A stretch of 19,825 nt of DNA, taken from the NCBI GenBank assembly GCA_044356295.1, contig JBIKWN010000047.1:1-19825 (forward strand). The letters run 5' to 3'. Shown here piece by piece: positions 15,001-18,000 of this stretch (positions are counted from its first letter, which is position 1; the number at the start of each line of letters is the position of its first letter). Made by a program: the position numbers. The stretch is from Bdellovibrionota bacterium (GTDB lineage: Bacteria; Bdellovibrionota_C; UBA2361; JBIKWN01).

Positions 15001-18000
15001 CAAAGGTAATTGATCACGTCTTAGCAGTAACAAAAGCATATTCGACTCGTGTTGGAAGTGGACCATTTCCAACGGAGCTCAAGGACGAAACGGGCGATAA
15101 AATTCGCCAGGCAGGGGCTGAATTCGGCACTAATACTGGACGTGCTCGTCGTTGTGGATGGTTTGATGCAGTAGCGATGAAAAGAGCCGTTCGTTTAAAC
15201 GGAGCTGATTCATTGGCAATAACAAAACTCGATGTTCTTACAGGAATGGGTAAATTAAAAATAGCGATTAAGTATACTCTTGATGGTATAGAAATTGATG
15301 ATGTCCCAGCTCTTGCTAGTGAAGTAGACCGTGTGGTTCCTGAATTTATTGAGCTTGACGGATGGGATGAAGACCTCACCGCTGCAAAAAAATGGCACCA
15401 TCTTCCTGCATCGGCTAGGCTCTATCTTACAACAATTGCAGATATTCTTGGATGTCCAGTTTCGATCGTAAGTGTGAGTCCTGAACGAGATTCGACTATT
15501 TTTTCTGGAAACGCACAGTTTGTGAAAAATTTTGTGGATAAAAATGATGAGCTTACCAGCGTTGATGACAACTGAAAATTTTAAAACCATTCTTGTAGTT
15601 GATGATGATGCTTCGATTCGTAAATCGCTGCAGGGTGTGCTTTTAGATGAAGGCTATCTTGTTACTGAGGCGAGTAATGGACTTGATGCACTTTCATTAA
15701 TAGAAACTGCGACTCCTGATGCTGTCCTATTAGATATATGGATGCCGGGTCTTGATGGTTTGGAAACTCTTGAAAAAATTAAGAAATCATACCCCGATCT
15801 TCCCGTAATTATGATAAGTGGACATGCAACGATCGCAACTGCAGTAAAAGCAACACGTATGGGTGCTAATGATTTTATTGAAAAGCCAGTTGATCTTGAA
15901 GCGGTACTCCTTGTTCTTGAAAAAGCTGTAAAGCGAATTCCATCTTCGTTACAAGATGATAAACTCAAAAATAACTCTATCTTACATGAAGAGATTGATT
16001 CTGAGTTAACTCAAGTTTCGAGCGAAACTAAAACCCACATCACACCGATTGTTTTTACAAAAAAAGCATTACTCGGCGATAGCATACAACAAAAAACACT
16101 TTCTAAAGCTGCAATATTATATGGCTTAGGCCTTCATTCAGGTAAGAAAAGTGGGCTTGTTCTTGAGCCATTGCCTGCAAATTCAGGAATTCATTTTGTT
16201 GGTGTTTCAGAAAAAACAATTGTCCCAGCTCATGTTGCCTATGTTGAATCAACTGGATGGGCTACTACTTTAAAGTTAGGAGATACTCAAGTTGCCACTA
16301 TTGAACATCTTATGTCAGCGCTTCATGCTTACGGAATCAGTAATCTTTTAATAAAATGTAATGGAGAAGTCCCAGTATTTGACGGTTCGGCTAAGGAGTT
16401 TTGTAATGTTATCGAGGGTACCGGTATTGAAACCCAGTTAGAGGCATCTCAGAGCGACTGGAGGGAAATAGTAATCCGTGAGCCAATAAAATTTCAAAAA
16501 GAAAAGGGAGAGTACATTGAGCTAGTTCCTGCAGATACTTTTTCAATTGATTATACACTGAAGTATCCAGCACCACTTAATACCCAGGAATTTTCATTTA
16601 CACTTTCTGATTCTGAAACGTATAAAAATGAAATCGCACCTGCTCGAACTTTTGGCTTTGTTAAAGATATTAGCTATCTTCAGAAACAAGGCTTAGCGCT
16701 TGGTGGACGTTTCGATAACTTCTGTTTAATTGCTGATTCAGGTCCAATTAATACAAACTTCCGATTCGACAACGAACCGGTCCGCCACAAGATTCTTGAT
16801 GCTATCGGCGACCTTTATCTATTAGGTCGTAAAATTCGTGGTAAAGTAAATGCGATGATGACAGGTCACTCTGATAATATTGAAATTCTTCGACTCGTTC
16901 TACAAAAAATGGATGATGAACTATCATCAAGGAAATAATTGATGTTCCCAAAAATACGCATTATAGCAATCGTTCTCATTCTACTGATTGGATGCAATAA
17001 ACCAACTGACAAAAACCAGATCTCAATCGGAGCTATTGCAAGTCTTTCCGGCGCTGCAGGTGAGCAGGGTAAGAACTGGGTACAAGGTGCCGAACTTGCA
17101 ATTCATCAAGCAAACAGTAATGGCGCAAACGATAAAACTTTTGCTCTTATCGTTGAAGATGATCAGACTCAACCTGCAAAAGTGGTGGCAGCGATGTCAA
17201 AACTTGCACAAGTAAACCAAGTAGTCGGTGTCATTGGAGGCACATGGGATTTTTTAGGAGAAGCTGCCTATCCACTCGCCGAGAAATTCAAGATTCCTTT
17301 TATTACTCCCTCAAACCCAGTTGAAGTCATAAGCAGCGCTGCCAAGTCTTCTGGATATGTTTTCTCGACCGGAATGTCACTTGCGGCTATGAAAAATGCC
17401 TTATCTGACTTTATTGATTCAGAGAATATCAAAGGTCGCTTTACGGGGAATATTGCTATTGTATTTCCAGACCTTCCCTTTGGTACAAGACAAGCAGAAA
17501 TGGTCCGAGAGGTCATTAAAGAAAAAAAACTTTTGCTCTCATTTGAATATGCTTTTCCACCTGCCAGTTTAATGTCTGATACGGTAAAACTTGCGGCTCA
17601 AAAAATACTTACCGAGAAGCCGGACCTAACCTATATGGTCATTGACTATAATGGTTTAGATCTGGTTACTAAAGAATTCACAGCCCAAAAAATTCAACCG
17701 AAAGTGATGACAACGCAGCATCTCGATCAAGCTTTTTCTTTCTCAAAGGATCCGAGCCGATACAAAAATATATTTGCGCTGTACCCGTTAGCACCATCTT
17801 TAGGGTTTGAAGAAGCCTATCAAGATTATTTTAAAACTCCTCCAAGAGTATATGGATATGAGGGATATCTTGCTGCAAATTTTTTAATTAACGTAGCTAA
17901 GGGTGTTTATACATTACCGAAAGATACGCAGCAGCTCCTTTCAGATGGTCAAATGGAGTCTAAAGCTCGAATTATGACTACAGATAGTGGACAGTTCTTG

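Follow-up and report, generated by a model that had tools for sequence, protein, structure and literature searches.

LpxC catalyses an essential, flux-controlling step of lipid A synthesis and is a drug target, and its control is known mainly in enterobacteria, where FtsH, LapB and YejM are involved. A receiver that is joined to an enzyme by a flexible linker is found in the methylesterase CheB. For bacteria outside the enterobacteria, a 2025 review of LpxC names only transcriptional effects of NtrYX and ChvGI, in two alphaproteobacteria, and its text nowhere uses the words "receiver", "fusion" or "response regulator" (PMC12444477). Loss of NtrYX in R. sphaeroides raises the lpxC transcript 8.8-fold and also raises LPS (PMC7240162; PMC12444477). 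A further paper describes DUF4390 (PlrP) as a third component of NtrYX-family systems, which occurs almost only beside ntrY homologues (PMC13001219).

We analyzed a window of 19,825 nucleotides from a Bdellovibrionota bacterium, in which the initial annotation had pointed to an LpxC fused to a response-regulator receiver domain (here REC-LpxC). Our literature searches, like the earlier ones, returned no paper on a fusion of LpxC with a receiver; a mention is possible in Galperin's response-regulator censuses, which lay outside the search.

The Only lpxC of the Genome Encodes a Receiver Domain

The gene encoding REC-LpxC (P0001) is located at 15547..16938 on the plus strand and consists of an open frame of 463 amino acids plus stop with Pfam matches to both REC and LpxC. 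The forward frame translates without stops, and the opposite strand of 15547-16938 is stop-rich. In-frame ATG codons are present at both 15544 and 15547, and a database protein identical to REC-LpxC (P0002) is 464 amino acids long, so that the start of REC-lpxC may lie one codon earlier, at 15544. The frame annotated at first is confirmed, with this small correction as to its possible start. The gene directly upstream is purA (adenylosuccinate synthetase; 14229..15575, plus strand; PF00709, 3e-166), the 3' end of which extends 29 nt into REC-lpxC. This arrangement, with purA directly upstream on the same strand, is found in 18 of 33 related loci and likewise in genome G027. Directly downstream lies a gene encoding a periplasmic binding protein (Peripla_BP_6; 16939..18009, plus strand). 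This protein was rejected as a conserved partner, being encoded downstream in only one of the 33 related loci, which is from the same genus (L003).

A profile scan of the whole genome (93.6% complete, 128 contigs) gave a single LpxC match, which is REC-LpxC, with the receiver at residues 15-121 and LpxC at residues 182-452 in one frame. This agrees with the claim that the sole LpxC of the genome carries an N-terminal receiver. LpxA, LpxB, LpxK and LpxI are also encoded in the genome.

Of the 124 genomes of the phylum, 120 carry the fusion, and of the 73 high-quality genomes, 72. Both domains were found in one frame in at least 109 of the 124 genomes: a match spanning both domains was obtained in 106 genomes, and the two domains share a frame in G075, G070 and G001 as well. 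The receiver is retained even in reduced genomes of 1.5-2.3 Mb. A search of genome contigs with REC-LpxC as a query identified six related loci, of which four are fused. All 120 homologues listed, out of 7930, carry PF03331 and PF00072 (58-100% identity), as had been reported for the double-domain architecture. The fusion could in principle be an artefact, in which two adjacent genes were joined by an assembly or sequencing error. We rejected this explanation, which has a negligible probability, as the same frame runs unbroken through 106 genomes, an internal stop being absent in 104 of these, and recurs in every one of the 120 database proteins listed, whose sources are diverse.

Sequence and Predicted Structure of the Two Domains

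The receiver (residues 15-121; 15589..15909, plus strand) is of the NtrX/NtrC type. It matches PF00072 with an E-value of 6.9e-32 and 110.4 bits (cut-off 30.2) over positions 1-107 of the 111 positions of the model, and its best match in the PDB is the NtrX receiver 4d6x (3.9e-28). The five phosphorylation residues conserved in receivers (DD, D, S/T and K) are all present. Residue D63, in the motif LLDIWMPG (codon at 15733..15735, plus strand), is the predicted phospho-acceptor, a role assigned by its position in the receiver domain, and it is invariant in two alignments of fused proteins, one of 31 and one of 87 sequences (31/31 and 87/87). D20, S91 and K113 are invariant in the same alignments. 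D19, described earlier as invariant in a smaller set, is kept in at least 90% of the proteins. Judged by these residues, the receiver is apparently phosphorylatable.

The catalytic domain (residues 182-452; 16090..16902, plus strand) matches PF03331 with an E-value of 1.1e-81 and 274.7 bits (cut-off 27) over positions 1-267 of 268 of the model, and TIGR00325 (lpxC) with 236.2 bits (cut-off 187.25). It aligns with residues 1-280 of P. aeruginosa LpxC with the EH, TF, HKxxD...D and GH motifs in register. These are the zinc-binding and catalytic motifs of LpxC, and their residues are presumed to have the same roles here. E253, H254, T368, F369, H414, K415, D418, D422 and H441 are invariant in the 31 and in the 87 (87/87) aligned fused proteins, in line with the invariance noted before for E253-H254, T368-F369, H414, D418 and H441 in a smaller set. 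An AlphaFold2 model made from the alignment of 87 sequences reached a pLDDT of 88.2 and a pTM of 0.72 and supersedes the earlier model, which had a pLDDT of 73.5. Foldseek comparison with solved LpxC structures gave TM-scores of 0.83-0.95, normalised to the target, and rmsd values of 1.5-3.7 A. By profile, motifs and modelled fold, REC-LpxC is an LpxC and is predicted to be a catalytically intact zinc deacetylase.

The two domains are connected by a linker of which residues 131-151 (15937..15999, plus strand) are predicted to be disordered (pLDDT <50); this part is unconserved and varies in length, with insertions and deletions of up to ~70 residues in the alignment. It is followed by a conserved, phylum-specific segment just before LpxC (residues 160-181; 16024..16089, plus strand), with block-mean pLDDT values of 84-91, an extra beta strand predicted at 176-179 and a glycine, G177, which is kept in at least 90% of the aligned fused proteins. 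The motif of this segment was absent from the long forms examined (see below). A complex prediction of the receiver (10-130) against residues 152-463, run with both parts as alignments and without controls, gave scores of 0.00 and 0.00 against a mark of 0.32, a result that counts on neither side of the question of docking.

REC-LpxC ends directly after the last LpxC helix, without a tail. The initial annotation had set this enzyme against the FtsH/LapB proteolysis known from E. coli, a contrast that is only partly borne out. A search of the genome yielded no LapB: the best match to NF008757 scored 32.1 bits (cut-off 363), and the matches are generic TPR proteins. A TPR protein of 389 amino acids on contig C11 was considered as a LapB and rejected; it has a signal peptide and lacks a C-terminal zinc finger.

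The Receiver Is Probably a Remnant of an NtrX Regulator

MAGs of Nitrospinota, "Deltaproteobacteria" and Entotheonellia encode proteins of 650-736 amino acids in which an entire NtrX-like regulator precedes LpxC, with the organization REC-AAA+-HTH-LpxC. Among 49 representatives scanned, 15 are organized as REC-Sigma54_activat-AAA_lid-(HTH_8)-LpxC, one as REC-HTH_8-LpxC and one as REC-x-LpxC of 505 amino acids; 19 are complete short REC-LpxC proteins and one more is a short form with a cut REC. Of 16 long forms inspected, 14 have Walker A and none has GAFTGA. The fusion is not peculiar to Bdellovibrionales; REC-LpxC is the short form of NtrX::LpxC fusions that occur in several phyla.

The best NCBIfam match of the receiver part is NtrX (NF051870; 1.8e-36, residues 14-153, 126 bits), and the same model is the best match of the long form P0128, with 335 bits. 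NtrX is thus the top-scoring response-regulator model for both proteins, though both remain below its equivalog cut-off of 600 bits. No NtrX equivalog reaching this cut-off was found in the genome itself, in which the best score was 374 bits. REC-LpxC does not have the architecture of an NtrX, as AAA+ and HTH are lacking and no kinase gene lies beside it. The long-form relatives do have this architecture, from which we conclude that REC-LpxC probably descends from the NtrX family without being a member of it. Searched against the genome, the receivers of seven long or intermediate forms all (7/7) had the receiver of REC-LpxC as their best match. The motif SLxGxLxDEG[YF] in the first helix of the receiver is common to seven long or intermediate forms and is absent from a sigma-54 response regulator on contig C116 of the same genome. 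On these sequence comparisons, the receiver of REC-LpxC is probably a remnant of an NtrX regulator.

A tree of LpxC domains was computed under LG+G4, which is not a mixture model, with the root not fixed and with domain starts taken from phmmer coordinates. The LpxC domains with an N-terminal extension (69 rows) were separated from 38 standalone or FabZ-fused domains with a branch support of 97/77, and short forms were sister to long forms at three starred nodes. The direction from long to short is drawn from the parsimony of the architecture. Three standalone proteins (P0181, P0200 and P0260) nest within the N-extended clade, indicating that the extension can be lost. In a quick and poorly resolved tree of receivers (115 columns), the fused receivers did not form an exclusive clade and were not separated from three other receivers of the genome. 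One of these three belongs to a sigma-54 regulator in the lpxA-lpxI cluster.

In the long-form loci scanned, an NtrY-type kinase (NtrY_N-HAMP-PAS-HisKA-HATPase) is encoded directly upstream in all four loci with an upstream flank, and DUF4390 precedes the kinase in all three loci that reach far enough. The ancestor was probably LpxC joined to a complete NtrX, with REC, a sigma-54-type AAA+ domain lacking GAFTGA and an HTH of the Fis type, and was encoded after DUF4390(PlrP)-ntrY; this complete form persists in phyla other than the Bdellovibrio-like one. In the latter, AAA+ and HTH would have been lost and the gene would have moved to a position beside purA, leaving the DUF4390-NtrY-like kinase pair behind as an orphan.

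An Orphan NtrY-Like Kinase as Candidate Partner

The initial annotation had named no cognate kinase; two candidates can now be put forward, an orphan DUF4390-NtrY-like pair and an orphan HDOD-PAS kinase. The former is located on contig C37, where a DUF4390 gene (39.3 bits, cut-off 27) is followed by a gene encoding a kinase of 743 amino acids (P0314), with no response regulator beside it. P0314 has the core HAMP-PAS-HisKA-HATPase, has DUF4390 directly upstream and is closest to an NtrY: in a one-directional search it was 33% identical over 683 amino acids to the NtrY of locus L066 (370 bits, against 99 bits for the next match in the genome). In the region around the phospho-accepting histidine, 27 of 31 residues are identical to the long-form NtrY. 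NtrY_N (PF19312) scored 12.5 bits on P0314 (cut-off 23.2) and had no match in the genome.

The NtrY-like kinase was found in 116 of the 124 genomes of the phylum and in all 73 high-quality genomes. As both the kinase and REC-LpxC are near-universal, their co-occurrence does not discriminate. In none of 20 sampled genomes was a REC gene found within ~3 kb of the kinase gene, which within the phylum is never adjacent to REC-lpxC and, when on the same contig, lies 35-280 kb away. The sigma-54 regulator of the lpxA-lpxI cluster could be the partner of NtrY instead.

We propose that the sole LpxC of these bacteria carries an NtrX-derived receiver and that phosphorylation of D63 by an NtrY-type kinase governs the activity or the stability of LpxC, a reading of the sequence data which we consider somewhat better than an even bet. 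The architecture, the conservation of residues, the distribution, the homology with the long forms and their gene order, and the orphan kinase are observations; which kinase phosphorylates the receiver, whether this activates or inhibits LpxC, and by what physical means, are inferred. Two-component control of the enzyme itself, as suggested in the initial annotation, is still the best reading, and the anatomy on which it was based was confirmed; it has been changed in three points. The NtrY-like kinase would sense an envelope or periplasmic cue together with its DUF4390 partner and phosphorylate D63, and the state of the receiver would set the flux into lipid A. Coupling might occur if the receiver docks on LpxC and is released from it, as in CheB, or by phosphorylation-dependent dimerisation or turnover. 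Since the linker is disordered and variable in length, these modes are more likely than a rigid mechanical link.

Alternative Explanations

HEIKNPL-type H-boxes, as in NtrB and NtrY kinases, pair with NtrC-type receivers, whereas the orphan HDOD-PAS-HisKA kinase has the H-box SHDLKAP. That this kinase rather than NtrY is the cognate kinase, or that it provides a second input, is a possibility to which we give limited credence; in that case LpxC would be linked, through its receiver, to a cytoplasmic or membrane signal read by the PAS kinase. It derives from gene order in family f18, in which the HDOD-kinase operon lies next to REC-lpxC in divergent orientation, at 1.25-3.3 kb, in 35 of 36 genomes (positions compared by hand; the exception is split by contig ends). 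In G027, a genome of a different taxonomic order, the operon lies 6 kb from REC-lpxC. Clear orthologues of the HDOD protein (45% identity) and of the kinase (42% identity, with 274 bits where the next match has 112) are encoded in the genome studied here (P0313 and P0312), on contig C26, where no REC was found. As the f18 genomes are close kin within a single family, their adjacency counts as about one event. Moreover, the kinase was not found with this query in f3 (0/4), f4 (0/3), f5 (0/1) and f19 (0/3), families whose genomes all have REC-LpxC and for the most part reach 90% completeness or more, and nothing links it to the long-form loci.

RssB and CpdR are receiver proteins that steer proteolysis, and the receiver of REC-LpxC might similarly set how much LpxC is present rather than how fast it works. 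It would be a degron that depends on phosphorylation, or a module that binds an adaptor, for an AAA+ protease, replacing the C-terminal degron and the LapB/FtsH route of enterobacteria. The lack of a detectable LapB, the tail-less end of LpxC and the long, disordered and variable linker are consistent with such a role, and RssB models score 2e-26 on the receiver. Many other receiver families, however, score at least as well as these RssB-like models, and gene order ties no protease or adaptor to the gene; we regard this explanation as unlikely. Lower still, and well below both the NtrY and the HDOD readings, we place the idea that the receiver is a leftover with no regulatory role for LpxC, a constitutive structural appendage or a phosphate sink for NtrY. 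The loss of AAA+ and HTH could be taken as ongoing reduction, and standalone proteins do occur inside the N-extended clade (P0181, P0200 and P0260). However, the phosphorylation residues are invariant or at least 90% kept across the phylum at overall identities of 32-82%, and at least 109 of 124 genomes, the reduced ones included, have kept the receiver. As the AAA+ domain decayed, a useless receiver would be expected to decay too.

Control of LpxC by an NtrY-type kinase through its own receiver may also have a wider bearing. Fusions under at least five phylum labels (Bdellovibrionota, Myxococcota, Binatota, Nitrospinota and Entotheonellia) could be a Rosetta-stone sign that NtrX and LpxC cooperate physically. 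The same partnership, unfused, might then explain why NtrYX acts "indirectly" on lpxC and LPS in alphaproteobacteria and why PlrR~P is essential in Bordetella, and the switch might gate outer-membrane growth in predatory Bdellovibrio-like bacteria. This extension is speculative, and we think it is rather doubtful. New in this study is the view of REC-LpxC as the short form of a wider family that includes whole-NtrX fusions behind ntrY. It links two separate topics, the envelope phenotypes of NtrYX and the control of LpxC, and the REC-LpxC phylum together with its NtrX::LpxC relatives offers a concrete, testable mechanism for other lineages. The orphan DUF4390-NtrY pair of these bacteria gains a probable target, and one polypeptide and one kinase would make a simple system for the study of phosphorylation control of an envelope enzyme.

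Comparison With Known Systems

The closest known systems are NtrY/NtrX (PlrS/PlrR) and PlrP. REC-LpxC shares with them the NtrX-type receiver, its long relatives without GAFTGA are encoded after DUF4390-ntrY, and the genome keeps both DUF4390 and an NtrY-like kinase. In alphaproteobacteria, NtrYX already affects lpxC and the level of LPS. In contrast to NtrX, the output of REC-LpxC is an enzyme and not a DNA-binding regulator, AAA+ and HTH are absent, and the genes for kinase and receiver are unlinked in this phylum.

Control by FtsH, LapB and YejM in enterobacteria concerns the same enzyme and the same need to keep lipid A and phospholipid synthesis in balance at the committed step (PMC12444477). 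It differs in that REC-LpxC has no C-terminal tail and an N-terminal, phosphorylation-based module, in a genome in which no LapB was found. CheB likewise has a single N-terminal receiver on a monomeric hydrolase and a disordered linker, and relief of auto-inhibition could plausibly be modelled on it; its catalytic domain is not homologous to LpxC, and docking of the receiver on LpxC is a proposal made here. LpxC-FabZ fusions (NF009667; PF03331 and PF07977), represented in our set by P0208, P0211, P0222, P0250 and P0257, are another widespread case in which LpxC shares a polypeptide with a second domain. There the partner is C-terminal and metabolic, whereas in REC-LpxC it is N-terminal and of a signalling type, and the LpxC domains of the two kinds of fusion lie on different sides of the tree.

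A receiver domain fused to the only LpxC of the genome

The fused gene REC-lpxC (15547-16938, forward strand) is one open frame of 463 codons, and the strand opposite to it contains many stops and no open frame. Pfam searches assigned residues 15-121 of the encoded protein to a receiver domain (REC; 6.9e-32) and residues 182-452 to a complete LpxC domain (1.1e-81). The protein also exceeds the 187-bit cut-off of the NCBI lpxC equivalog model, scoring 236 bits. When the whole assembly (2.96 Mb, 128 contigs, 93.6% complete) was scanned in six frames, a single LpxC match was obtained, REC-LpxC itself. 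The initial annotation had described a receiver fused to a full-length LpxC as the sole LpxC of this genome, and the uninterrupted frame, the two domains and the scan bear this out. LpxA (293.9 bits, cut-off 231), LpxB, LpxK and LpxI are likewise encoded in the genome, and the LpxC enzyme therefore belongs to a real lipid A pathway. In-frame ATG codons are found at 15544 and 15547, and the identical database protein is 464 amino acids long; translation may begin one codon before 15547. The purA gene ends at 15575 and overlaps the start of REC-lpxC.

The gene order in the window is rimP, nusA, ylxR, infB, rbfA, a DHH phosphoesterase gene, truB, purA, REC-lpxC, a periplasmic binding protein gene and a MgsA/RarA-type ATPase gene. 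Among 33 related loci, purA is located directly upstream of REC-lpxC on the same strand in 18, and the downstream genes vary. The window TruB (13579-14241, forward strand) is 220 amino acids long and its TruB_C_2 match ends at model position 41 of 66; purA starts at 14229, against the truB end at 14241. TruB proteins encoded next to purA or REC-lpxC in four related loci (L031, L034, L036, L037) are 294-310 amino acids long, and the window TruB may lack the C-terminal (PUA-like) part. A 399 amino acid protein encoded at 5818-7017 (forward strand) has Sigma70_r2 (residues 167-233) as its sole Pfam match; the roughly 165 residues ahead of it match no model, region 4 is not matched either (E ≤ 0.001), and the protein is possibly a sigma-like factor of an unusual type. 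The open reading frames at 553-1479 (reverse), 2155-2529 (forward), 19270-19746 (reverse) and 1-420 (reverse) encode proteins of 124-308 amino acids with no Pfam match (E ≤ 0.001).

Conservation and predicted structure of REC-LpxC

Both Pfam domains are present in all 120 homologues listed, of 7930 scored. A search with REC-LpxC in 124 genomes of the same phylum gave a match in 120, and among the 73 high-quality genomes in 72. In 106 genomes a single frame matches throughout, from the receiver to the LpxC end, and in two of these it contains one in-frame stop. The two domains are also fused in G075, where the match is cut, in G070, where the linker is longer, and in G001, at 33% identity; 11 genomes contain pieces only, mostly at contig ends. 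No match was found in G054, G058, G003 and G026, which are 66-90% complete. The G001 protein (locus L020) forms, with P0169, P0172 and P0177, a divergent subgroup with 32-34% identity to the window's protein, and its acidic pocket is EDD instead of DDD/DDE. LpxC-only matches away from contig ends occur in two genomes, at G111:C195:1721-2626 (328 amino acid frame) and G112:C235:2515-3378 (301 amino acid frame), each with receiver-like pieces on other contigs; such cases may reflect LpxC genes that are split or lack the receiver, or breaks in the assembly.

In alignments of 31 and 87 members, receiver residues D20, D63, S91 and K113 and LpxC residues E253, H254, T368, F369, H414, K415, D418, D422 and H441 are invariant. 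This agrees with the initial annotation for the receiver residues and LpxC motifs listed there, except for D19, which is kept in at least 90% of the members. Residues 1-280 of Pseudomonas aeruginosa LpxC align to the LpxC part with the same motifs. The roles of the conserved residues are assumed here from their positions; judged from these residues, the receiver domain is predicted to be phosphorylated.

An AlphaFold2 model built with 87 sequences (pLDDT 88.2, pTM 0.72) shows residues 131-151 as disordered and residues 160-181 as ordered, with an extra strand (176-179) ahead of the first LpxC strand. Superposition of the LpxC part on solved LpxC structures gave TM-scores, normalised to the target, of 0.83-0.95. 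None of the chains listed in a structure search covered both REC and LpxC (TM-score normalised to the query at most 0.57), nor did any of the 60 chains listed in a sequence search.

Long and intermediate forms and the origin of the fusion

A family search in 1.84 billion representatives identified 2069 proteins at E ≤ 1e-30, and 49 among the best 150 were scanned with Pfam. Nineteen are short REC-LpxC proteins, and one more has a cut REC. Fifteen are proteins of 650-736 amino acids composed of REC, a sigma-54-type AAA+ domain, an AAA lid, often a Fis-type HTH, and LpxC. Two are intermediate: P0139 (491 amino acids; REC-HTH_8-LpxC) and P0129 (505 amino acids; REC-x-LpxC), whose middle part aligns with the long-form HTH. 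The others are N-terminally cut AAA+...LpxC pieces (six), LpxC-FabZ fusions (five) and one LpxC with a 70-residue extension. The AAA+ matches of the long forms range from 3.5e-41 to partial ones near 1e-7, a weakening that looks like decay. Walker A is present in 14 of the 16 long forms checked and GAFTGA in none of the 16, which is the pattern of NtrX. The best NCBIfam match of the long form P0128 is NtrX (335 bits, under the cut-off of 600), and it scores 253 bits, above the cut-off, with lpxC. Long forms come from metagenome-assembled genomes labelled Nitrospinota and 'Deltaproteobacteria', some being named NtrX by JGI; the labels of the 491 and 505 amino acid forms are Candidatus Entotheonellia and Nitrospinota, respectively. 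In the ESM Atlas, 17 of the 30 nearest clusters contain both domains, and the commonest label in the top three is Myxococcota or Candidatus Binatota.

An unrooted maximum likelihood analysis (LG+G4, careful search) of 107 LpxC domains separated 69 N-extended forms by one branch (97/77) from 33 standalone and five FabZ-fused forms. The extended side holds a group of 26 Bdellovibrio-like sequences (84/98), the four divergent G001-like sequences (100/100) and 39 others, in which long, intermediate and short forms are intermingled. Short or intermediate forms are sister to long ones at the starred nodes P0144/P0149 (97/85), P0146/P0148 (98/86) and P0139/P0142 (100/100). A single event joining a complete NtrX to LpxC, with internal parts lost repeatedly afterwards, would explain this pattern; gain of AAA+-HTH by REC-LpxC would instead require repeated insertions, each in the exact NtrX order. 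Three complete standalone LpxC proteins (P0181, P0200, P0260; 283-292 amino acids) and P0136, a probable LpxC fragment, also nest within the N-extended clade. The position of the three complete proteins suggests that the receiver was lost secondarily or that the genes were split. Two of the three are sister to short forms at starred nodes.

The receivers were compared as well. For all seven long and intermediate receivers, the window's receiver is the best match in its own genome (42-57% identity, 107-140 bits; next match 84-93 bits), and it shares with these seven forms SLxGxLxDEG[YF] in the first helix. In a receiver tree (quick method, 115 columns), the 58 fused receivers all fall within a group of 61 (SH-aLRT 85). 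The remaining three members of this group, unresolved within it, are other receivers from the window's genome; the other 31 of 34 fall outside it.

Candidate kinases

Searching metagenomes with P0128 identified four loci that include an upstream flank (L066, L068, L069, L070). In all four, the gene immediately before the fusion, in the same orientation, encodes a 744 amino acid kinase (NtrY_N, HAMP, PAS, HisKA, HATPase_c), and DUF4390 precedes the kinase in the three loci that extend far enough. PMC13001219 describes DUF4390 as PlrP, a third, periplasmic component of NtrYX-family systems that is found almost exclusively beside ntrY homologues. Contig C37 of the window's genome carries ruvA, ruvB, DUF4390 (39.3 bits, cut-off 27), a 743 amino acid HAMP-PAS-HisKA-HATPase kinase (P0314) and fbp, with no response regulator beside the kinase and no REC match on the contig. 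This kinase shows 33% identity to the L066 NtrY over 683 residues (370 bits; next match in the genome 99 bits), and around the phospho-accepting histidine (positions -12 to +18) 27 of 31 residues are the same as in long-form NtrY; its Pfam NtrY_N score of 12.5 bits is under the cut-off of 23.2. The genome has no NtrX equivalog (best 374 bits against 600). The NtrY-like kinase is found in 116 of the 124 phylum genomes and in all 73 high-quality ones, the eight genomes without a match being 55-85% complete. In families f3 to f5, whose genomes are reduced, each genome encodes 7-12 HisKA kinases, this one included. In 20 of 20 sampled genomes, no frame within about 3 kb of it matched either of two receiver queries, which together detect 38 frames in the window's genome against 47 Pfam receiver matches; DUF4390 was detected upstream in 12 of the 20.

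A regulator in a lipid A gene cluster could be the partner of this orphan kinase, in place of or alongside REC-LpxC. The cluster (C116:16806-22200; L140, L141) contains, all on one strand, skp-fabZ-lpxA-lpxI, a 375 amino acid AAA ATPase gene and a gene for a canonical REC-Sigma54_activat-HTH_8 regulator of 459 amino acids, with no kinase gene beside it. Its receiver is the second-best match in the genome to the long-form receivers and is among the three unresolved in the group of 61; its first helix differs from the motif shared by the window's receiver and the fused forms. The regulator occurs in 91 of the 124 phylum genomes and 60 of the 73 high-quality ones (E ≤ 1e-120). In G036, a kinase lies within 2 kb of each of the three strong sigma-54 regulators. 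Neither the NtrY-like kinase (E ≤ 1e-40) nor a C116-type regulator was found in G001 and G002 (80-85% complete). Lipid A genes may have in this cluster a second connection to two-component signalling.

Another candidate is a PAS-HisKA-HATPase kinase with the H-box SHDLKAP. In genus g31, a divergent HDOD gene followed by this kinase gene lies upstream of REC-lpxC, and in 35 of the 36 genomes of family f18 the kinase is 1.25-3.3 kb from REC-lpxC by manual comparison of match positions, the exception being broken by contig ends. The HDOD-kinase operon is conserved and divergently adjoins REC-lpxC across this family (also L016, L017). In G027, of another order, the distance is 6 kb, with ribosomal genes and obg in between. 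The equivalent pair in the window's genome (P0313/P0312; C26:12880-15026, L064) has no response regulator or receiver nearby. The kinase query gave matches at E ≤ 1e-30 in 99 of the 124 genomes, of which about 87 look orthologous (E at most about 1e-55, residues 56-400). No match was found in families f3, f4, f5 and f19, all of which have REC-LpxC.

Possible modes of control and relation to known systems

In an alignment of 31 members the linker ranges from almost nothing to about 70 residues without conservation, and a linker that is both disordered and variable in length argues against rigid transmission. In CheB, the receiver docks on and undocks from the enzyme, and in NtrC-type receivers dimerisation depends on phosphorylation; either could apply to REC-LpxC. 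Controlled turnover of the protein would be a further option. LapB was not found in the genome, and REC-LpxC ends without a tail after its last helix.

According to PMC7240162 (reviewed in PMC12444477), loss of NtrYX in Rhodobacter sphaeroides raises the lpxC transcript 8.8-fold and increases LPS; the study detected no NtrX site in the region upstream of lpxC. Judged from the fusions, the link between NtrYX and LpxC may be old and direct.

Full-text literature searches, with Galperin's response-regulator censuses and domain-architecture databases outside their scope, turned up no report of LpxC fused to a receiver or to NtrX, in line with the initial annotation. The words 'receiver', 'fusion' and 'response regulator' are absent from a 2025 review of lipid A regulation (PMC12444477). 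The protein sequences themselves are public and carry the plain LpxC annotation, except that some long forms are annotated as NtrX. The evolutionary link of the LpxC fusion to NtrYX appears to be unreported so far; response regulators with an enzymatic output are a kind already known, of which REC-LpxC is a variant.
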